This document shows positions 3,474 to 64,000 of a DNA stretch of 64,000 nt, piece after piece. The notes beneath the pieces were generated by a model, which did no database searches, was not told the origin of the DNA, and was given only the letters and a program-made list of their open reading frames with translations. The translations under genes were made by a program, and so were the position numbers. Positions within the stretch are counted from its first letter, which is position 1, and every line of letters begins with the position of its first letter. This DNA comes from Eledone cirrhosa (taxonomy: Eukaryota), in NCBI GenBank assembly GCA_964016885.1, contig OZ024740.1, positions 117,366,001 to 117,430,000 on the forward strand, given 5' to 3'.

Positions 3474-3552
<79 letters not shown>

Positions 3553-4144
3553 AAACAAAAAGAACGACCAAGCAAGAGGATGCATTAACATAAAGTTGTA
3601 TTAGTTGCCCGCTTTACAGAATGAGAGTGAGTTACACAGGCAATGCAATAGGTATTTGCCCTTCATCGGGGAAAACACTGTTCTGAGTGTAGACAGAATA
3701 TAAAAGGAAAATGGCAAAGAAAATAAAGATAAAATATATTTTTTAATAAAATTTGAAAGAAAATTAAAAGGAGAGGAGGAGGATGGGGAGTAGTGATAAG
3801 AGAGAGGGCATTGGTCCGGCGTGTGAGTGGAGGGGTTGAGATGTAGGGTGCTAACATGTATTTGGTTGTTGTGTAGGTGAGGTATATACAATGCGTGTGT
3901 GCATGTGTGGGTGGTAAATGTGTTATTGATGGATGTGTGTATGTGAGTGTGAATGTGAATAAACATGCTTCTGCGTGCGCTCATTAATACGCACACAAAA
4001 ACACACTTGTATATGTGTACACACACATACACATGTATCCTTGTGTACGCACTTGTGCATGTGTGTGCACTTGTGCATGTGTGTGCACGTGTATGGCAAG
4101 GATATTGTGGTTATTGGTGCGTATTTTGAAGCTGCATGTATTGA

Positions 4145-20653: not shown

Positions 20654-20976
20654 ATAGTTGTGGTAGTAGAAGTAGCAGTAGTAGTAGTATCATGATCATC
20701 AACAGCATCATATTCTTCATCACCAACATTACCATTATTAACTGACAGCTCTTTGTTCACATTCTTCAAATGAGTTGACGATTTGAAGAATCGAAAACAA
20801 ATGCTACCAGTTAAGCGAACTTAATGAAGCATCGCATTCTCTAAAACGTGCTTACAGATGTCTATAGTTAAAGCAGGCTTATAAAAACCCACATGCCATA
20901 GTAAGTGATGTATATATATATATATATGATAAAAGTAAGATTGCTGGTATTATTTCAACGTATATATGTATATATA

Positions 20977-21169
20977 TAACGAAGGAGTCGTGGTAAGGAA
21001 CCAGATAAACCATAACGCACCAGAGTACTCAATACTTAGGGTAGTAGAGTGGGTAATAGGAGAAAGTATGACCCCGACGGCAGAGCTCAAGCCGTTTCGA
21101 CGGCTATTTCTGGACTAATGTCTTTAGTCCAGAAATAGCCGTCGTAACGGCTTGAGCTCTGCTTTCTCC

Positions 21170-21170
<1 letters not shown>
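20977..21170 (+). repeat. TA-targeting fold-back element, family A
   Basis: Same body; hairpin centre ~21120. Confidence 0.8.
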
Positions 21171-21205
<35 letters not shown>

Positions 21206-21502
21206 TATAAAGTTTTACATATACATAAAGTTATAGATATATATGTTGCAACCGGTCACTTTTAATTGGAAGAAGAAACGGTATATATTTTATCTAATAA
21301 TTCTAAAGACATGATTTATGATATATATATATATATATATATATATCACGATAAATTAACGGAGCCATAGGCCCTCGCCATTCCCTGTAAATAATGTGCT
21401 CAAAGAAGAAGTCCTGAGCTCTTTAAAATACAATATGTTGAAAACGTAACACACCAGAGAGATATATACAGTGCGCTATCAATAAAACGGAAATATATAT
21501 AT

Positions 21503-21705
21503 ATAACGAAGGAATTGTGGTAAGGAACCAGATGGACCAATACTTAGGGTAGTAGAGTGGGTAATAGGAACAAGCATGACTCCGACGGCAGAGCTCAAGC
21601 CGTTTCGACGGCTATTTCTGGACTAAAGACTAGAAATAGCCGTCGAAACGGCTTGAGCTCTGCCGTCGAAACGGCTTGAGCTCTGCCGTCGGAGTCATGC
21701 TTGTT

Positions 21706-21710
<5 letters not shown>
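21503..21710 (+). repeat. TA-targeting fold-back element, family A
   Basis: Same body; hairpin centre ~21626; internal duplication in the return arm. Confidence 0.8.
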
Positions 21711-21772: not shown

Positions 21773-21960
21773 TGTATATTATATAGTGACGAAACATAAG
21801 TCAATTGCATGAACTCATAATCCTTTATTTACTGCTATATATATTTTGATGATATCCATTGAATGGCTATGACCTCATCAGGCAGTTAGTCAGTTCTTAG
21901 ATATGCCAGCTCTGTGTTTATGGTGTTGATGGTATCAGAGCCTTGGGACATATATACTGT
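21771..21960 (-). mobile_element. Solo pLTR fragment related to the 57-61 kb PLE, with a mutated hammerhead (21831-21886)
   Basis: Minus strand: actgc-CTGATGA-ggtcatagcca..tggatatcatc-AAAA-tatatata-gcagt-aaataaa. GAAA core changed to AAAA; TA arrays on both sides. Confidence 0.7.
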
Positions 21961-22459: not shown

Positions 22460-22463
<4 letters not shown>

Positions 22464-22702
22464 CGAAGGAGGTGTGGTAAGGAACCAGATGGACCATAAC
22501 GCATCAGAGTACTCAATACTTAGGATAGTAGAATGGGTAAAGGAAAATGTTTAACCCTGATGGCAGAGCTCAAACCGTTTCGACGGCTATTTCTGGACTA
22601 ATCCAGAAATAGCAATCGAAACGGCTTGAGCTCCGGCGTCGGGGTCTTGAATATTTTCCTATTACCCACTATACTGGTTCCTTACCACCCTTCCTTCGTT
22701 AT
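22460..22702 (+). repeat. TA-targeting fold-back element, family A
   Basis: Same body; return arm reaches the terminal cttcgtt. Confidence 0.8.
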
Positions 22703-41167: not shown

Positions 41168-41208
41168 CGATATTAAATAAATGGAAACTATATTTATAAA
41201 ACCATATT

Positions 41209-41274
41209 TATTTCATTATATATATTTCAGGGATATCATATTAACAATATGTTATGCCTTCTTCAGACAAAATA
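41209..41274 (-). ncRNA. Minimal type I hammerhead ribozyme in the 3' pLTR
   Basis: Minus strand: tattttgt-CTGAAGA-agg..catatt(gtt)aatatg..cct-GAAA-tatata-TA-atgaaata. Stem I has 8 bp including 2 GU; overlapping AATAAA. Confidence 0.75.
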
Positions 41275-42571
41275 CAATATAGACAGTTTTATGAATAAAT
41301 AGATTTGACATACCTTTCAACATCGACTTGCATTTGAAAAGTTGATTTGGCAGTGAAAATTGTAAACAGAAAGAAAGAAAGAAAGAAGGAAAGAAAGAAA
41401 GAAAACGAAGAAAAAGAAGAAATCCATGCAACTAAATAGAGAGATGGAAAGATAGATAAAGAGAAGAACTTCATGTAAAGAAACAGAGAGAGATATATAT
41501 AGAGAGGAAATAGATAAAGATAGATATATATAGAGAAAAGTAGGTAGTTGAACATCCGTTGAATGACGTATCAATGATACATTTATTTATTTATTTATTT
41601 ATTTAGCTCTAGTATTAATGTAAGGGAGATATATGTGGTTAGGAGAGAAACCAGCCGTTATATATAGAGAAAAAAATGAAAAGTAACCAGACATAGGCGA
41701 GGCAGAATTTAAAAACCCTATGTTTCAATGTAGAAATATTAGTTCGTATAAAAACAGGCACTATAATGTAAATATCAGTATTCATGAATGAGACACGTAT
41801 CTATAATGTGTGAAAAGTAATGATCTTATGTCTAGTTTTAAAAATTCATATGTTTATATCATAACTACAAACATCGATGTGAATTTACGTGATCAGCTCT
41901 GCAAACTCCTATTTCACACGGAGAACATTCTCATTGTGCTATAAAAATTTAAGTATACATATATGTGTATATATACACATATATATAGAGTCTATATTAA
42001 TTTTAACAATACTATTCTTGTCTTTACTCTCCATGATTATCTATCAAGCAGAAATAGAGAACAGATTTCAATATATTAATAAAAATATCAGAAACAAAAA
42101 CAAAAAATAATAATAAATAAATAAAACAGAAAACTAAAAAATATTAAATATTAAAAATAAAAATATTAAAAATATTAAAAAAATATTAAAATAATAAAAA
42201 TAAAAACATAGTATGCCACGCAAATCGACCACAAAGATCAACCCTTCAAAGTTAATTGACAATATATTGCCAAGTTCATTATAAGCATCAGAGTCGAAAA
42301 CAGATAAAACCAAAAATTATTTACCAAATCCTGTCTAGCAGAAATCATTTCAAAAGTTTAGGATACCCATTTGGTCTACATATGTTCTTATATTTAATAT
42401 AGAAGTTTATCTAGTGTAACATTTATTCGATATATTTGGAGCATCAACTTTTAGGGTAGTTTAATTTTTCATGAAGAATGTTTAAAATAAAAATAAAAAG
42501 AAGAATAAAAAGAAGAAATCGAAAGATTTATCGGCTAGTTTCATAAATAATTACAAATCAAACTAAATATA

Positions 42572-43490
42572 CTACATTTTAAATTTAAATTTATATTTAA
42601 AAGTTGAGTTCAATCTATGTTTGCAGCAACTGAATAAATTTGTCCGTAGATTAAGGGAATTTTTAGATTTTAGTATAAAGAATATCTCCTCCGCGCAGAG
42701 GTCACATGTCTCAGAGGATGAATTAAAAGGAATCCCTCTTGAGACTATATTCCAAGCCGTCGAATATCTAACGTTATCATGCCTAAGTTGCCAGAGTACG
42801 CCTGATAGTGCTGTTGAAGATTTTTTGCTTGGATCTATGAAAGAATTCCGTCGATGTGGAACCAACGTAGTTAAAAGAATTAAAGTCCGTTTTAACATTA
42901 CAGTTGTATATTATATTTTTAACTAAGCAGTTGTTATTTAACGGACATTTAGATCTATCTCTACAGTTACATTTGTTAACTTGTATATTATTTATGCTAT
43001 TATCGCTAGGTTTTAAGTTCCTATTATTTATTCTATTAATATTTTGTGCTAAATTTTTGGTGGATGAGTAGGTTAATTTTATAGTATGTCTATTGAAAAT
43101 TGAGTGATACCTATGTGTTCTAGGGAAGCGATTATCAAGAGCTTTAAAAAATAGTTGAGCGATGTGGGTTTTAATGTTTAGTGAAAAAGGGGGAGCAAAC
43201 CATATTATGTTCCTAGTTCTATTTCTTTTTTGGCTTTTGGAATTATTATAATGCTTTCTATTATAGTTGTTAAGTTTGTGGCCGTAATTAAAATAGTTGT
43301 TATTTTGTTTAGTTTGTCTATCATTATCTATGTACATAATTTTATCACTATATCCTGCTCTAGCTAACGCTTCATTGTAGTACTGGGCTTTTTCGTCGAA
43401 AATCTTTCTATTAGACGAGATTCTAGAGATACGTTTTTGAACAGAGTTTACTATAGTATTTTTAACAGATATGGGGTGGTTAGAGTTAAA
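42572..43490 (-). pseudogene. PLE RT-thumb/linker/GIY-YIG remnant
   Basis: NSNHP...KRISRISSN...YYNEALARAGY, IIWFAPPFS, IFNRHTIKLTYS, CNCRDRSKCPL, NIIY...YVGST, STALS, CDLC..E, LNLRTNLFSCCKH; one frameshift. Confidence 0.9.
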
Positions 43491-43904
43491 GCTTTCTTTC
43501 CTTCTTTCTTTCTTTCTTTCTGTTTACAATTTTCACTGCCAAATCAACTTTTCAAATGCAAGTCGATGTTGAAAGGTATGTCAAATCTATTTATTCATAA
43601 AACTGTCTATATTTATATATATATATGAAGAAGGCATAACATATTGTTAATATGATATCCCTGAAATATATATAATGAAATAAATATGGTTTTATAAATA
43701 TAGTTTCCATTTATTTAATATCGTAAATATACTCCAAATACTTGTTGAGTGCTTTTATATCAGTTATAAATATTTACTCGTTGTAACCCAACAATTTAAA
43801 TATAACTTTCCATATATATATATATATATATATTCACACAACCCACCCCCATATAATATATATATATACATACATACATATACACATGCATATATTCATA
43901 CATA

Positions 43905-49289: not shown

Positions 49290-49418
49290 TTATATATATA
49301 TATAAGTTATATATATATATATAAGTTATATATATATATAAGTTATATATATATATAAGTTATATATATATATATAAGTTATATATATATATATAAGTTA
49401 TATATATATATATATAAG

Positions 49419-49451
<33 letters not shown>

Positions 49452-49454
<3 letters not shown>

Positions 49455-49656
49455 CGAAGGAAATGTGGTAAGGAACCAGGTGGACCATAACGCACCAAAG
49501 TACTCAATACTTAGGTTAGTAGAGTGGGTAATAGGAACGAGTAGGACCCCGACGGCTGAGCTCAAGTCGTTTCCACGGCTAATTCTGGACTCCAGAATTC
49601 TGAGTCCAGAATTAGCCGTCGAAACGGCTTGAGCTCAGCCGTCGGGTTCCTGCTCG

Positions 49657-49660
<4 letters not shown>
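49452..49660 (+). repeat. TA-targeting fold-back element, family A
   Basis: Same body with variant ctgag/aatt in both arms. Confidence 0.8.
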
Positions 49661-49702
<42 letters not shown>

Positions 49703-52697: not shown

Positions 52698-53065
52698 AAC
52701 TTCACTTTGGTAACTTTGATAGGTTTTATATATATATATATATATATGTGAGTGTATGTCTATGAAGACACGTGGCCTAGTGGTTAGGGTCTTGATCTAA
52801 TAATCATGAGTTCGTGGGTTCAATTCTTTATTTCAACACACCTCGCTTTCTGTCAGTATTTATATGTATGTAGGAGAAGACAACTCAGGAAGCTGGGATA
52901 ACTCCTAGATAAAACCTGCGGCTCACTAGTTACCGATGATGTTGATCTTTTCTTCTTTTAGGGTTATAGCTACTGTCGCTCAGAGAGTGGGATTGGCTCA
53001 ATGCACAGTCTTTCCTCACATTAAAACTGATCTTCACGCACAGGTATTGCACGATAGCATTAATT

Positions 53066-53378
53066 GAGTTCAAATCCCGCCGAGGTTGACTTTGCCTTTC
53101 ATCCTTACGGGGTCGATAAAATAAAGTACCAGTAATGCACTGGGTAATTGCTGGCCTTGTGCCTAAAGTAGAAACAATTAATTGATAATTATTAATAATT
53201 GTTTCTACTTTAGGCACAAGGCCAACAATTACCCAGTACATTACTGGTACTTTATTTTATCGACCCCGTAAGGATGAAAGGCAAAGTTAACCGCGACAGG
53301 ATTTGAACTCAGATCGTAAAGGGACGTAACTCTATGCTAGAAAGCATGGCGTCCAACCCTCTGCCGATACTGCCAATC
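53066..53378. mobile_element. Two SINE copies tail-to-tail (53066-53178 +, 53195-53378 -)
   Basis: Core and tails read in opposite orientations. Confidence 0.8.
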
Positions 53379-54500: not shown

Positions 54501-56430
54501 TATATATTTGGGTTGTGATTAGCCCCAAACTTTGTCTTTACGCAGGTTTACTCGATAGCATGTCTATTTGTGAGTATATATGTACTTGTGTCTGCGCATT
54601 GTTGCTTGCACATGTACTTCAAGGTGTGTGTGTGTGTATCTATGTGTGTGTATGTATGTGTGTGTGTACCTGTGTGTGATATGCGTCATCATGAGAGTTT
54701 ACTCATTTAGTAATTTACTTTACATGTATTTGCATGTGTTTGTATTATTGTGCAAACGGCAAATTGGCAGACTCGTTAGAACGTCGGGTAGCAAGCTTTG
54801 CCGTATTCGTTCCGGTTTTCTTCTCTTTCAGTTCAAATCCCGCCGAAGTCAACTTTGCCTTTCTTCCGTTCAAATTCGATCAAATAGTACCAGTCTAATA
54901 CTGAGGTCAACTCTTCATCTATATCTCTATATCACTACCTTTCTCTCATTTTCTTTCCTTCCATGGAAGAAATCTGCTGTATTTAGAACTGGAGATAAAT
55001 CAGCGTGTTTAAAATAAATGCCTTAGAAAAGCCGTATGTCAATACGACGCCCCTACAAGTTCTCCAGGTGTTACGGGTCTAAAGGAGGAGGGAAGGAAGA
55101 AAGGTAAGTATAATTGTGCATGTGGACATTCTTGCTCATGTGAGTGATTCTGTGATTATGTGAGTGCGCGCCCGAGTGTGTGTGTGTTTGTTTGTGTGTG
55201 TGCGTGTGTCTAAACTTGAGTGGGTTTGCATAGAAGCGAGCGGGAGTGTGTATGAATGTAAGTGCGTATATGTGCACGCAGAATTGAGCATGTGTTTAAT
55301 TATATTTTCATTTCTGCGTTTGTCTATATGAATATATATGTATGTGTGAGTATTTTAACGCTCAAAGGGTGAATATCTACCGCTGAATATGTGTATATGT
55401 GTACTGTGCACGTGTACTGTTATATGTGTATGTGTAGACGTATGCGTGTGTTAGCGCGTATGTGTATGTGTATGTGTGGGGTGGGGGACCTGGGTTTGTA
55501 TGTGTGTTTTTACACCTGCATAGATTTTCGTCTGTGATTTTTGCGAGAAGATAATTTTTTATATTGTGGAAGATTGTATGTATACGGGCACACTTGCATT
55601 TGCTTATGTTTATACGTATGTTGGATTTTACCGATAAGTCAGCGGGGTGGGGAGACATACCACTAATGACCCTATATTTTTTCCTCAGTCTCCTTGATGG
55701 AAGAGAGGTAGGGTGAATAAGCTCGAATATTGCAACAATGTAGGCTCAACTAATAGCCCCCACGAAAAGCGCACTAGAGTTATCCTGGGAGAGGGATTAA
55801 GTTAACCATCGAAGAACTCAGAACACAAAGTGCTGGAAGAAATATCTCAAGCCATTGCATTCGACATTTAGCATTTCCACGATCTGCCCTCCTTGACAAG
55901 GGCTTTACTTTATTGACCTCGAAAGGGAGGTGGGAAACATTAAAGTTGGAGGGAACGTGAGTGTTTAAAATGGGTGATTGTGCGTAGATATGTGACATAC
56001 ACCTGCACTTATTTACTCGTACTTTTTTGAGTAAATATAACCGTTTAAGTTAGATATAGTATACACACACTAGAGGAAGTGAATGTGGGTAGGCGTTAGC
56101 GTAACAGTAATTAACGAGGCGAAAGATAAATATTAAAATAATGTTAATTTTCTAAATTTTGCATACATTTCTAAATTAATTGAATTGTCAATAGTTATAA
56201 GATTGCTAAAACATAGTTGGGGATATCACTGCGCGCTAGCCTGAGCAAATGTACTATACTATAGAACATCGGGTTGACCAATACATCATGAAAGATATTT
56301 ACTTAATGGAGTTTATGCAGAAGTAAGAAATAAGTGTATGACGGATACTCCCGTGAAGATTCATCTGATTAGTGACCAGTTAATCATTAGCATTCTCAAG
56401 GAACTTCTGAAGTTGAATCAACTAACCCAT

Positions 56431-56601
<171 letters not shown>

Positions 56602-57064
56602 AACCAGTAAGACCCCGACAGCTGAGCTCAAGCCGTTTCGACGGCTAACTCCACCAGTTGCAGAGTGCGCATCAACATAAGATATTTTTCATATGAGATA
56701 TTTTTCTCCACAAAGTTCGATCACCTATATATATGTATATATAAATATAGGTTCGAGTGAAATCAGGTGGGTATTGGCTGTTTATTCTAGCAACTATATT
56801 ACTCGCCAAACATCCAGCCTTTACCACCCAACTGTCACCGTTATACCACCTGATAATTCTCCCTCCCGAGAATTTTACACTGGTAGCGGTCAGTTCAAGA
56901 ATTCGTTCTTTTATTGAGGGGTCTCTTGAAAAGCCGATAGTCTCACGGCCACGATGCACTTTAGTTGCACTCTAACTGCATACTAGTCGGCGAAACTCTA
57001 CAGTTGGGACTTTGAAGAAAAGATTACCTATAATTTGACTATTTTCTTTTCACATCCATGATTG

Positions 57065-57128
<64 letters not shown>

Positions 57129-57270
57129 AGTTTATGTTGGTTGTATACCAACACCTCAGTATGCAGGCTGGAGCACTCGACGAAGTGCGCAGGTTGGTTT
57201 GGTTACTCCGGAGTAGTGTAAAATAAAGTTAAATAAAAAGTCAAATGATTAAAATTTAGCTTCGTTTATT

Positions 57271-57325
57271 ACTGCTATATATATTTCAGTGACAGCCATC
57301 TTTGGCTGTGACCTCTTCAGGCAGT
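57271..57325 (-). ncRNA. Minimal type I hammerhead ribozyme in the inverted pLTR copy
   Basis: Exact reverse complement of 61030-61084. Confidence 0.85.
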
Positions 57326-57867
57326 TTGAATTAGTGTGGTATAGACAAGTACATATGTTGTTGAGGTGTATAATATTGTCAATACTCTGATATTTCCAGT
57401 TCCTGGTTGGGTTGTTATTTCACTGTGGAACTGGAATCATATGAATTCAAACAAACGAATTTCAGTGTCAAAGGTCCTCTTCTCCTCTCATTGGTCAGTT
57501 ATTAGAACATTCATCATTCTAAGTGTTGTTATTGTTGGAGTTAGCTTAAAAAATTGATAAAATGGTAGAAGGGACAAGCTGTTAAAGGAACAAATAACAA
57601 AAAAGTGTCAAACTTCCCATTGGTCAGTTCTGAGAGCATTCCTCAGTCAGAAGTCTATAGAATTCTTTCTGGGGTGAGGCTCCCTGTAGTGTTTTTGTTT
57701 GCGATTGTTAAATACATTTGACCTCTACCATTATTTTGGTAGTGTTGTTGGTGTTGTGGTCAGCTTATATCTTGCTGCTGCTAACAATTTAGAAGTATCC
57801 AGTGTGTGTTTTTTTCTTTTTTTCTTTTTTTCAAAAGAATACTGGATTCTTTTTTTTTTTTTTAAAA

Positions 57868-59833
57868 AGAATACTGGATAGGATTTTGCCCAAGCTTCGG
57901 AAGAAAACTAAATTACAGCAATGGTCATGCACGGGAGAAGTAATAGAATGGTTTAAAATACTGCATGAGAAAAGTAGGACCAGCTTTATACAACTGGACA
58001 TCGCAAGCTACTACTCCTCAATCTCACCCATAGTACTTAATAAGGCCCTATTTTTAGCGATGTCCAATACGGACCTAACCCGAGAGGAGGTGAGCATCAT
58101 CCACGCCGCAAGAAAGACCTTAATCCGCTTCGATGGAGACCTTTGGACCAGGAGTGATTGGCCAAATAACTTTGACATCACGATGGGCTCCAGCGACTCA
58201 GCGCAGGTAACGGACCTGGTTGGGCTCTACCTGCTGAACCAGATAAAAGATGAAATCCCCTGCCTGGTCGGCGGATTATATCGTGACGATGCTCTATTCA
58301 TAGTATATGACCACAGCACCAATATGTTGGAGGGTATGAGGAGGCGTATTCGCCATTTCTTTAAGAACCAGGGGCTCAGCATAGAAATAGACCCAAATAG
58401 GAAGGTAGTTAACTTCCTAGACACCACCCTAAACCTGAACACCGAGCAATACTACCCCTACCCTTCGTATATGTTAACGCCAAATCAAACCACCCTAGAT
58501 CCATAACCAAGGCAGTGGTGAAGAGTGTCTCGGACAGGATCTCCAGCCTGTCCGCAAGTAAGGAAATATTCAATAACCACGCGGAATATTACAACGCAGC
58601 TCTAAAGAAGGCGGCACATGGCCAAAATATAACATATAGTCCGAAAATCCGGGATGGGGATAGCCCAACAGACACCACAACCGCGTTGCCCGGGGGGGGG
58701 GGGCGGAGGGCGAACCCTAACAATACAGGCAGAGCAGAATCAAATAGGCACCACGTGCCCGACACCACCACACGGGCGGTGGGGACTAGTGCGCTTGACC
58801 ACGAGATGGAGCACAATATGAGTAGCAGTCTCAGGCGTGACGCTAACCACCCCAGGACAGACGACCCCAACCGCAGGACACGTAGGGGGGGGGGGGCGAC
58901 CACCCCATGATGGATCTCCCGGGGTGGACAACGACCACCCCACAAATTCGGACTGCGAAGATAACAAAAAGCATAGAGCCCAAAGGGGAAGCAACAGTGC
59001 GGAAACCACCAGCAACCCAAAAATCACGTGGTACAACCCACCCTACTCAGCGGCCCTAAAGAAAAGCTTGGCCCGATTATTCGTTGGAGCACTTGACAAA
59101 TGCTTCCTGAGGGACCACATATTCCACAGGATCTTCAACAGACACACTGTGAAGCTCTCGTATTCCACCACGAGAAATTTGGCCCAACACATAGCATCAA
59201 CAGAAGTAGGCTTAAAAACCACACACAACCAGAAGATGGCAATACAAACACTCAGCAGAACCATGTGAAAGGAGGGAAGGGGGGACCCAGAGCCCACCCA
59301 AGAAACCCAAACAGACCCGATGACCCCCCACCGAGCCTGGGGGAAGACCAGCATGTAACACATAACGGGAACCCTAATCTAGGCACGCAGAGGCCGACCA
59401 CCCTCTGCAACTGCAGAAACCCCGAAACATGCCCCCTTGGTAATGAATGCCTCAAGAAGAACCTAGTATTATCGGTTGTAGGGTTAAAACCCCCAACTCC
59501 GAACACCTCTACATAGGAGCCACATCAACGAGCTTTAAAGACCGCTGGTACAACCATCGCCATTCATTCAAGAAGGAGGCCAAAAGGAAAAGCACAGCTC
59601 TCTCCGACCTGATCTGGAAGCTTAAGCTGGACAGGACCCCATACTCTCTGGCCTGGTACATAATCAGGAAAGTACCACCCGATAAAGGCGGATCTTGCAT
59701 ATGCAAACTATGTCTGAACGAGACCCTCGAGATACTAAGAGGTGGAAGCGGCCTGATAAACCTCAGAACCGACTTCTTCGGGACATGCAGACACTTTAGA
59801 GCCGGGACCTTTCTCAAGTTATATGGACAGTAG
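57868..59833 (+). pseudogene. PLE reverse transcriptase + GIY-YIG endonuclease, about 4 frameshifts
   Basis: Motifs FIQLDIASYYSSI, MGSSDSAQVTDLVGLYLL, GLYRDD, VNFLDTTLNL, YVNAKSNHP, ITWYNPPYS, IFNRHTVKLSYS, CNCRNPETCPL, YIGATSTSFKDRWYNH, CKLC across ORFs 57802-58506, 58515-58910, 58837-59268, 59100-59516 and 59447-59833. Confidence 0.92.
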
Positions 59834-61029
59834 CAACACAAGAAGATGTGAACTCCCCTCAAGCTATAGGGACTTCTACAGAACATGAACACACCTCTCG
59901 GCCAGACCTCCCTCAAGCTATATGAGCAGTAACAACACCCTAGGTTGTGAACTCCCCTCAAGCAGTAGGGAACAACCCAGACTGAGCAGACACCATGATA
60001 GCCCAGAGATAGAATCGGACACAGCCATTATAATTTGGCCAACATCTATATAACACAAACAGTTTTTAATTTACTAGATTTCTGATTTTCAAGTTCCAAT
60101 TTTAAATCTTGATTTCTCTTTATTAATTTGTTATTTGTTTTCTGCCCTCTTCACTGTCTCACCTTATATTTATTTTTAAGTTAAGATTGATTATAACACA
60201 AACACATTTAGTTTGATTATCTTATCTTAACATCTTGTCCTCATACCAATCTATCCAACATATTTCTGACCTTGAGATTGGTTATAGCACACACACACTT
60301 TATCCTACATTATTTTTCACTTCTCCATATTCATTTTCATTACTTTTTCACCAATTTTTCATTTATTCTTTATTCTTTATTCTCTATTTATTTATTTATT
60401 TTCAAATTATACAAATTATATTAATTATTTTATATTATTTATTTATTTTCTGTTTTCTTCATTTATTGCCTTATATTTCTTCATATACATGGAAGAACCC
60501 CCCCCACCACTATGAAAGATGGTGGCAGGAGGGATGAAGAAAAAACACACACTGGATACTTCTAAATTGTTAGCAACAGCAATATATAAGCTGACCACAA
60601 CACCAACAACACTACCAAAATAATGGTAGAGGTCAAATGTACTTAACAATAGCAAACAAAAACACTACAGGGAGCCTCACCCCAGAAAGAATTCTATAGA
60701 CTTCTGACTGAGGAATGCTCTCAGAACTGACCAATGGGAAGTTTGACACTTTTTTTGTTATTTGTTCCTTTAACACCTTGTCCCTTCTACCATTTTATCA
60801 ATTTTTTAAGCTAACTCCAACAATAACAACACTTAGAATGAGGAATGTTCTAATAACTGACCAATGAGAGGAGAAGAGGACCTTTGACACTGAAATTCGT
60901 TTGTTTGAATTCATATGATTCCAGTTCCACAGTGAAATAACAACCCAACCAGGAACTGGGCATATCAGAGTATTGACAATATTATACACCTCAACAACAT
61001 ATGTACTTGTCTATACCATACTAATTCAA

Positions 61030-61084
61030 ACTGCCTGAAGAGGTCACAGCCAAAGATGGCTGTCACTGAAATATATATAGCAGT
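61030..61084 (+). ncRNA. Minimal type I hammerhead ribozyme in the 3' pLTR
   Basis: actgc-CTGAAGA-ggtcacagcca(aaga)tggctgtcact-GAAA-tatata-TA-gcagt. Stem I actgc/gcagt; AATAAA at 61085-61090. Confidence 0.85.
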
Positions 61085-61134
61085 AATAAACGAAGCTAAA
61101 TTTTAATCATTTGACTTTTTATTTAACTTTATAT

Positions 61135-61227
<93 letters not shown>

Positions 61228-61667
61228 GGTAAATAGAAATAACCACACAATCGGTACAGTATATGAAAGGAATATATTAAGTTAACGCTTGAAACATTAT
61301 ATTAGTCGCGCGTCTTATAAAAACTGCAAGTTTTATACGCATTTTAGGTCAGGGCAGTTATTCTCCATTAACACAGCTTGTATATGCGTCCTGCAGTGCC
61401 TAAATATCAATTTTGAATATCGGAAATGCTCGCTACTTCCGGCGCTCCTAAGCTATAAATAGGTATATATAAAAGTATAAACCCGGCCGCAAAACCTAGC
61501 ATTTTCGCTTTGTGTGTGGCAAGCCTTGAGAAGTCTTCCCACTAGCAAGACGAAAACACTAGGCACCAGGGTCGGGTCTATACCATCCTTTATACCCAAT
61601 CTGCTCCTTCCAACGCATAGAGTACTAACCTGAATTGTGACCTCCCCGGTTGCAACACCGCAGGCTT

Positions 61668-61870
<203 letters not shown>

Positions 61871-62087
61871 GCAAATATATATATATATTAGAAATTATGG
61901 AAAAAGATGAGTGTTGCCGTACATGTACGGCAACACTCATCTTTTTCCATTTCTCCGAGGGTTATAAATCCCACTATCACGCTAGAAATTTTTTTAGTCT
62001 AAAATACGGTGAAAGTTTATAATTTCTAATTTCAAACTCGCGCACCGTTTCAAAAACATACTTACATGTTTACGTTTATAATTTGCT

Positions 62088-62162
<75 letters not shown>

Positions 62163-62386
62163 CATTCATTTGATTTATTGATTTTTTGATTTTTTTTCTG
62201 GATGTCCCGAATCTTCCAGATCGCAATCTTTCGGTCGTACGGTTGATTATAGACTTGTTCTATGTGTGACGGTATTTTAACGATAGTTATAGTTCTGATT
62301 TATCTGAATTATTGAGCCCTCTGCCGCTCATATCGAATTTTGTTTATCGTGAACTCGTGCGCCGATTTTTCGATACTCGATTATTC

Positions 62387-62457
<71 letters not shown>

Positions 62458-63540
62458 TAATGGAAAAATTTGAACAGGGACAAAACAGAGAGGCAGTACA
62501 ACGAATGTTTATTAATTTCACGCTCTATTTCCCACCACAAAAGCTGAAGCACACACACGCACACATACACCACACTCCCCCCACATACACACAGGCACAT
62601 GTGTGTATCTTTTTATACAAACACTCTTACACGTACATACTCACACTCTCTAAAACCATATCCCCAAAATAGAATTTCTATTACAACCTTACTGTTGCCA
62701 ATCCTATAGAATTTGTCTCTAGCTTACAATTCCCCCCTCCCCCTTCTCCACTCCCATCTGAACTCTTGACCAGTCCACTAACACAATTGAGATACACACA
62801 TATTTACAAAATATTTCCTTTGTCCCTAAAAACAATTTTGTTCTATGTGAAGAAACAACTATCACCACTGCTGCTGCTACTATCACCTCTTTCTATATAC
62901 ACAAGAGTTCATTTTACAGTCTCCTTCTCAACAAGGAAGATGAAAAAACTTACCTCAACACTTAATTTTAAATCTTTAATTTTTAGTTTTTAATCCTTAT
63001 TAATTCTTTTTAATTGTAATACTCAACATTTGATCAGATGAATTTTAATAATAAATCGAAATCGGTAATACTTTATATACATTATAAAACTCTTTTTTTT
63101 AAAAGAATTGTCCCTCTCATTTTTTCAATAATGTCACAAGAAAAAGAAAAACAGACCCTTAATATATATTTTCAGTGTTATTTCCAATTTCACCTTCTCT
63201 CTATAACCACTGTTTTGTATAGAACCTTACTTCCCTTTTCTAACATTTATATTCGTACAACGAACTAACAAACCCACACGCCCAAAGTGTAACTTCGAAG
63301 AGCAAAGTAAAGTCGATCGACAGAGGATTGTAAAATCCGAAGGTTCAGGAATGTAAGAAAATAAGATGAGATACGTCAGCCCGGAACTCCTCAATATTTC
63401 TACCAATCTACCACCGAATGAAGTATTTATAAAAAGGAAGGTGAGTGCTGAGAAAACTGCCCCTCCCCACAACACACTCATGCACAAACACACATACGTT
63501 CACTCACAGATATATACATATACATATATATACGAAAATG

Positions 63541-63629
<89 letters not shown>

Positions 63630-63634
63630 CTGTA

Positions 63635-63668
<34 letters not shown>

Positions 63669-63850
63669 CTGTATATATATATATACATATATGTAAGAAA
63701 ATATGTAAATATCTATGTATATATTTATATGTATATGTATGTATGTATATATATATATATATATATATATGTATGAATATATATATATATATATATATAT
63801 GCATACACACATATATATACATATATATATTTGTGATATATCTATGTAAG

Positions 63851-63925
<75 letters not shown>

Positions 63926-64000
63926 CATTTACATATACATGTGTCTATCTCTCTATTGCTGTGGATGAGATTGTGTGTGTATGTGTGTATTACCAAGTAC

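Follow-up and report, generated by a model that had tools for sequence, protein, structure and literature searches.

A Hydra-clade Penelope-like element of Eledone cirrhosa whose inverted insertions pair one tailed with one untailed end

Penelope-like elements (PLEs) of the Hydra clade have been described as inserting into (TA)n and carrying hammerheads; their protein has RWK, DKT, and CxCx5C motifs as well as CxxC and CxH around a conserved E and N, and the CCHH motif has been lost (PMC8557442). Inverted pLTRs with two hammerheads are already known for this clade from Penelope-13_HM, which has an inverted 5′ copy and a hammerhead on both strands; how tandem and inverted PLE structures originate and what the hammerhead does were named as open in the same study (Craig et al. 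2021, PMC8557442). A tail on just one of the pLTRs has been mentioned earlier in qualitative terms (PMC3846280), and circles made by the hammerhead have been suggested in general terms (PMC6765202). For the Poseidon element of the anole, it has been demonstrated that the protein nicks and extends both strands, that two internal start sites bound the tail, and that RNA 3′ of the start sites is needed; a dimer was predicted, and hammerhead cleavage was dispensable in vitro (PMC11167929). Our literature search, which covered mostly open-access papers, found nothing on the end pairing, the hairpin, or the stutter described below; subscription papers and supplements may bear on novelty.

The window copy and its family

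When analyzing a 64,000-nt stretch of E. cirrhosa DNA, referred to here as the window, we characterized an insertion of a young Hydra-clade Penelope-like retrotransposon, of which this copy is broken. The original prediction had described inverted pLTRs of about 600 bp, with some ten substitutions counted by eye, around a remnant of a reverse transcriptase (RT) and a GIY-YIG endonuclease. This description was borne out: the arms (57219-57814 versus 60540-61136) are 98.2% identical over 597 nt, with one gap and 10 mismatches, one of which falls in the TA flank, and the remnants between them are frameshifted and 5′-truncated, with about ten indels. It did not include the 97-nt tail of the left arm, which is absent from the right arm. 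The copy starts at position 798 of the 4139-nt unit, which leaves 797 nt missing from its 5′ end, and its head-to-head junction is partly palindromic. It is a dead copy, unable to make protein (Table 1). The locus is ordinary for its clade, and it is the sister copies of the family that carry the significance.

Table 1. Parts of the family A insertion in the window
Feature	Position	Strand	Remark
Left (TA)n flank, target microsatellite	57066..57125	.	From the sequence
Tailed (T) end: 97-nt tail corresponding to the start of the 5′ leader	57126..57222	-	Matches unit positions 1-97 of full-length copies
Start-site hairpin 1 (ACUC...UC GAGU GC), 4 nt past the untailed end point	57173..57214	-	Weak match to model R1, E 0.14
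pLTR arm in inverted orientation, unit positions 3546-4139	57223..57814	-	
Minimal type I hammerhead motif, left arm	57271..57325	-	
Head-to-head junction insert, 50 nt	57815..57864	.	T runs, and the initial ~15 nt of the main arm in duplicate
Remnant of RT core and thumb, starting at aa 213 of the 892-aa protein	57865..58674	+	YRDD kept; frameshift near 58462
Two family-specific low-complexity inserts and a conserved WYNPP block	58675..59405	+	Several indels
CxCx5C linker, CNCRNPETC	59406..59432	+	
GIY-YIG endonuclease remnant: CxxC-E, N, CxH, without CCHH	59468..59833	+	Stop at 59831-59833
3′ UTR, 1.3 kb; untailed (P) end at 61132	59834..61132	+	60540-61132 is duplicated in the left arm
Minimal type I hammerhead motif, predicted cut after A61079	61030..61084	+	Followed by AATAAA at 61085
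Right (TA)n(TG)n flank	61133..61222	.	

A pLTR search of the 3.0-Gb genome returned 814 candidates, among which the 40 scored were all 99 to 100% identical, and a 26-nt leader pattern had 59 exact matches. Our sample of the family of the window element (family A) comprises 94 genomic regions and the window, with 97 insertions in total; since the regions were picked by pLTR or leader similarity, the sample is biased toward full-length copies. The nearest named proteins come from Argonauta hians and Octopus bimaculoides, pointing to a probable octopod host. One unit measures 4139 nt, and an intact 892-amino-acid open reading frame (ORF) is present in one copy (L044). The sequence of the intact copy P0030 reads RWK at 37, ADKT at 119, C850xxC853, E856, N869, and C878xH880, with no CCHH; the RWK/DKT region is missing from the window copy owing to its 5′ truncation.

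Family A has the features of endonuclease-bearing (EN+) PLEs, namely, a single ORF with a TERT-like RT plus a GIY-YIG domain at the C terminus, direct or inverted pLTRs with an optional tail, and a type I hammerhead motif in the pLTR. It also has those of the Hydra clade: RWK, a DKG changed to DKT, no conserved GxKF/Y, CxCx5C, CxxC/CxH, no CCHH, and (TA)n at the flanks of its copies. The unit is longer than the size of generally under 3 kb given for the clade, which is a tendency in the paper and not a defining trait. Family A has neither the DKG and CCHH of Neptune, Nematis, and Penelope/Poseidon nor the N-terminal endonuclease and lack of a canonical hammerhead seen in Naiad/Chlamys. The assignment to the Hydra type had first been made from CxCx5C and a CxxC placed after the endonuclease; the assignment is supported, but the position of the CxxC (59702-59713) is within the endonuclease and ahead of the conserved E. 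Pfam gave a GIY-YIG match just under the cut-off (E 6e-4), and the RT was not recognized by Pfam or PDB sequence searches. The predicted structure of the 892-amino-acid protein (mean pLDDT 79, with disordered inserts at 480-616 and 696-746) had TERT (3du5) as its best PDB match in a fold search (E 3e-9). By eye, the protein is colinear with Hydra-1_Obim and other references. On the level of sequence, these comparisons support family A as a new member of a known clade.

The hammerhead motif is the same in both arms, with its core C at 61035 on the plus strand and at 57320 on the minus strand, and consists of a 5-bp stem I, CUGAAGA, an 11-bp stem II with one mismatch, GAAA, and a stem III of 2 bp whose loop is palindromic. 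A type I descriptor scan of the 64 kb confirmed the two identical motifs claimed earlier and gave one further match (41266, minus strand), which belongs to a second family (family B). The predicted fold has a z score of -3.25, with 0 of 200 shuffles equally stable, while Rfam returned no hammerhead match in 55000-64000. The core and stem I are intact in 141 of 161 segments, and an older relative (L068) has one compensatory change in stem II. At 21821-21887 of the window (minus strand) lies an older relative of the family A hammerhead that shares about 80% identity and shows a compensatory change in stem II, and many more minimal hammerhead families were seen in the flanks of the retrieved genomic loci. 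Both ribozymes had been called intact, which holds for the motif; cleavage itself is a prediction and would probably need a dimer or protein help. For other PLE hammerhead motifs with a short palindromic stem III, dimeric or assisted cleavage has been reported (PMC4209133; PMC11167929). The second hammerhead is a by-product of insertion, because the inverted architecture is known in the clade and is the commonest state in family A (50 of 97 insertions).

Paired ends and twin hairpins

Family A copies end at two fixed 3′ points about 100 nt apart: P, the untailed end of the unit, and T, about 100 nt into the leader, which is the tailed end, with a tail of about 90 to 100 nt. All 50 two-ended insertions combine one P with one T (29 P..T and 21 T..P; no T..T or P..P), and five further insertions with very short inverted ends fit this pairing. 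Another 22 insertions are single-ended (12 P and 10 T), and for 20 of the 97 the two ends could not both be typed. Were tails as frequent as among the single-ended insertions (10/22), the chance of 50 P+T pairs in 50 would be about 6e-16. Family B shows P+T in 22/22 two-ended cases among 29 insertions. In a short palindromic non-coding family, 18 of 20 pairs are clearly P+T, one is a P with a deleted T, and one, at 22460-22701 of the window, is T+T, tailed on both sides.

The two arms of an insertion diverge by 1.6%, versus about 4% between insertions (n = 32, both arms at least 150 nt; p 8e-7), and they agree at diagnostic columns, for example, in 32/32. Such sharing of alleles reflects either one template or later gene conversion between the arms. 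The longer arm carries T in 30 and P in 20 of the 50 insertions. In 8 of the 50, the window copy included, the longer arm has neither a tail at its end nor a full tail within it, which means that the tailed arm cannot have been copied from it. Junctions overlap by 1 to 14 nt in 33 of 50 insertions, as read from BLAST ends. At several ends (L104, L025, L030, and L123), the first bases are duplicated or stretched, with restart-like repeats and A runs of 13 to 15 nt, possibly as marks of abortive RT starts. A miniature derivative (L102:2454-3234), built from 216-nt repeats that each comprise unit positions 4100-4139 and 1-176, has both hairpins, no hammerhead, and still one P and one T end.

Family B is represented in the window by an insertion at 41169-43812 (minus strand), a second Hydra-type element that is 5′-truncated, with the hammerhead at 41266, an untailed right end, and an inverted tailed arm. 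Its RT is 48% identical to that of family A, and the family is abundant and shorter than family A, with many open frames of about 745 amino acids.

In both families, a hairpin of the form RCUC-[stem-loop]-UY-GAGY-RC begins 4 to 5 nt after P and again after T. We looked at this pattern in a metagenomic set, in which 59 of 78 Hydra-type loci had leader sequence. The strict pattern matched 51 times in 16.0 kb of leaders, versus once in antisense and 9 times in 111 kb of ORF; a relaxed pattern gave 66 matches in 13.8 kb of leaders, with a spacing of 55 to 83 nt, versus 0 in antisense and 11 in 105.6 kb of ORF. In hairpins selected by sequence only, inner pair 1 is kept in 63/63, pair 2 in 42/60, and pair 3 in 28/38 (0/2000 shuffles each); pair 4 is not significant. 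The first pair is C-G in 43 and U-A in 20 of the 63, and this switch partly follows hairpin 1 versus hairpin 2, which makes it in part a matter of two classes and not of many independent changes. A TA ends 4 nt upstream of the hairpin in 33/65. By the sequence pattern, leaders of at least 200 nt (n = 45) have two hairpins in 20 cases, one in 14, and none in 11. Nine metagenomic second copies leave the leader 0 to 8 nt before a hairpin, a count that sets aside single mismatches, contig ends, and run-throughs and comes from a probe detecting only copies that reach 18 nt before the hairpin. Rfam gave no credible match over the leader, with the hairpin unmatched. Genome-wide, the pattern matched 9,632 times, versus 169 for the reversed control, and the hairpin can be used to recognize Hydra-type leaders as well as short non-coding elements with a possible dependence on them.

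Short palindromic non-coding elements flanked by (TA)n occur in the window at 200-520, 20900-21220, 21500-21710, 22460-22701, 49380-49700, and 56600-56660; they carry the start-site hairpin, mostly with one tailed and one untailed arm, and are possibly mobilized by Hydra-type proteins. Other short repeat families (L267-L291) have the hairpin about 100 nt before (TA)n, and the 230 nt upstream contain no hammerhead; some of them come back at intervals of about 590 to 620 nt, and one copy (L275) has (TC)15 after the tail. At 53065-53311 of the window, there are 116-nt inverted arms, 95% complementary and 15 nt apart, of a repeat also present at 54827.

A (TC) run of 2 to 31 units follows 25 of 70 family A tails, where the template reads UCU, and is found at 1 of 82 P-motif matches. 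That (CT)n was part of the target beforehand is disfavored: it is absent from the opposite flank in the 16/16 shown, and of 1,422 background array borders just one has the order (AT)(CT)(AT). The runs follow 25/50 tails that start with TC versus 26/100 in the background (p 0.006), and the ends that bear them lie in slightly more diverged insertions (p 0.049); family B tails have a run in 0/26. Both RT stutter at insertion and later slippage are possible origins.

Proposed mechanism and alternatives

In the mechanism that we propose, a single element RNA would be reverse-transcribed from both strands of a cut (TA)n target, with each hairpin serving one strand. Each hairpin may place an RT, probably as part of a dimer, where a UA or AU can pair with the TA of the primer, and short homology or templated fill-in would then join the two cDNAs head to head. 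We consider such paired priming at two hairpins on one RNA, with head-to-head joining of the cDNAs, probable.

The template may often be longer than one unit, most simply a circle made by the hammerhead, an idea that we regard as plausible while stopping a little short of calling it probable. If hairpin 2 is needed 3′ of T, as we infer, a complete leader preceded by a whole unit is required to make long tailed strands, and 29 of 48 right-hand tailed strands run 3.7 to 6.9 kb. No whole unit lies upstream in any of 71 leader copies, none of which has more than 2.6 kb of element there, although tandem source loci may be collapsed in the assembly or absent from the sequenced individual. Because long tailed strands occur without a visible tandem source, a circular template is suggested. 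The hammerhead cut as the template's 5′ end is a different matter and is unsupported, there being no sharp edge of 5′ ends at the cut: 37 of the 71 runs start more than 10 nt upstream (L109 having been reassigned to this group), 9 within -10 to +15, and 25 later; a separate base-level extension halts at internal indels and overcounts ends.

Paired priming could also use uncleaved read-through RNA from tandem sources, in which case the hammerhead would be dispensable or a passenger. The crossing of the cut site by 37 of the 71 leader-containing runs, the tandem present in a metagenomic locus (L193), and the lack of effect of hammerhead mutants on insertion of the anole PLE in vitro (PMC11167929) all fit this version. 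However, there is no full tandem among the 71 leader copies, and across arms the hammerhead region varies by 0.9% versus 2.8% in the upstream UTR, with the last 48 nt being equally conserved. We see it as possible but somewhat doubtful.

According to an earlier proposal, a single priming event is followed by fold-back self-priming on antisense cDNA or RNA, and resolution by the endonuclease leaves the tail on one side (Arkhipova 2013, PMC3846280; Craig 2021, PMC8557442). This would account for the shared arm alleles, and the junction in the window is partly palindromic. Nevertheless, 20 of 50 insertions have the untailed arm as the longer of the two, and in 8 of these that arm offers no full tail to copy, and the end points follow RNA hairpins with covariation, which makes fold-back unlikely.

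The original prediction had transcripts from either strand ending in a ribozyme and a poly(A) signal, and a read-through forming a double-stranded RNA stem of about 600 bp; taken further, the locus would be a functional unit that makes polyadenylated, ribozyme-ended transcripts on both strands and a regulatory double-stranded RNA. The motifs are indeed present on both strands, AATAAA follows each hammerhead (61085, plus strand; 57270, minus strand), and PLE small RNAs have been reported in rotifers (PMC3846280). The transcript ends, however, found no support: AATAAA lies 6 nt beyond the predicted cut, on the piece that cleavage would remove, and family A copies end in (TA)n with no poly(A). 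The arms drift apart by 1.5 to 1.9%, as other copies do, and an RNA stem of about 600 bp, deduced from the arms, would form only if the locus were read through. We judge this reading highly improbable. An assembly artifact, or two independent insertions into one microsatellite, is scarcely credible: both flanks are microsatellites and the junction is known from the assembly alone, but 50 insertions with differing junctions and arm lengths show strict P+T pairing and allele sharing within the insertion.

Paired priming can be extended to a fuller scheme, in which the twin hairpins would set the RT starts, a dimer would use one hammerhead-circularized RNA with one strand per hairpin, and stutter at the tail start would seed (CT)n in a telomerase-like manner. 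As a whole this is speculative, and we doubt it more than we believe it; if true, it would account at once for the tails, for pLTRs in either orientation (inverted or direct), and for what the ribozyme does. The pairing rule, the twin hairpins, and the naturally intact ORFs give exact and cheap predictions for an in vitro assay of an open mechanism.

Comparison with known systems

LINE-1 twin priming resembles the proposed scheme in that a single RNA is primed by both target strands, with the products joined by short homology; its second primer anneals internally by chance, and the 5′ part is inverted. In family A, by contrast, both starts are fixed, and it is the 3′ end that is duplicated.

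With the Hydra-clade PLEs Penelope-13_HM, Hydra-1_Obim, and Hydra-2_Amil (PMC8557442), family A has in common RWK, DKT, CxCx5C, CxxC/CxH, the lack of CCHH, the hammerhead, and (TA)n. The start-site hairpin is visible by eye in the Hydra-2_Amil consensus, whereas Hydra-1_Obim is a different family of 2.5 kb with another hammerhead. The family A unit of 4.1 kb and 892 amino acids exceeds the <3 kb of the clade by two disordered inserts and a 1.3-kb 3′ UTR, and its tail of about 100 nt is longer than the 30 to 40 nt given for PLEs (PMC8557442). The available text of Craig et al. 2021 (PMC8557442) makes no mention of hairpins or strict end pairing.

Poseidon of Anolis carolinensis (Frangieh et al. 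2024, PMC11167929) shares the two start sites that bound the tail, the extension of both strands, the need for 3′ RNA, and the predicted dimer. It belongs to another clade, however; no difference in start site between strands was seen, and in the accessible part of that paper pairing and homologous hairpins are unreported. The Penelope elements of Adineta vaga (Arkhipova et al. 2013, PMC3846280) share inverted pLTRs, a tail on one of them, and long RT-EN inserts, but their tail is 31 bp and called optional, and self-priming is given as the explanation, with no counts in the portion of the paper available to us. Non-LTR retrozymes (PMC7761336; bioRxiv 10.64898/2026.07.22.740005) share type I hammerheads, a link to PLE pLTRs, and proposed circular intermediates; they are non-coding tandem repeats (PMC7761336), whereas family A encodes its own RT-endonuclease.
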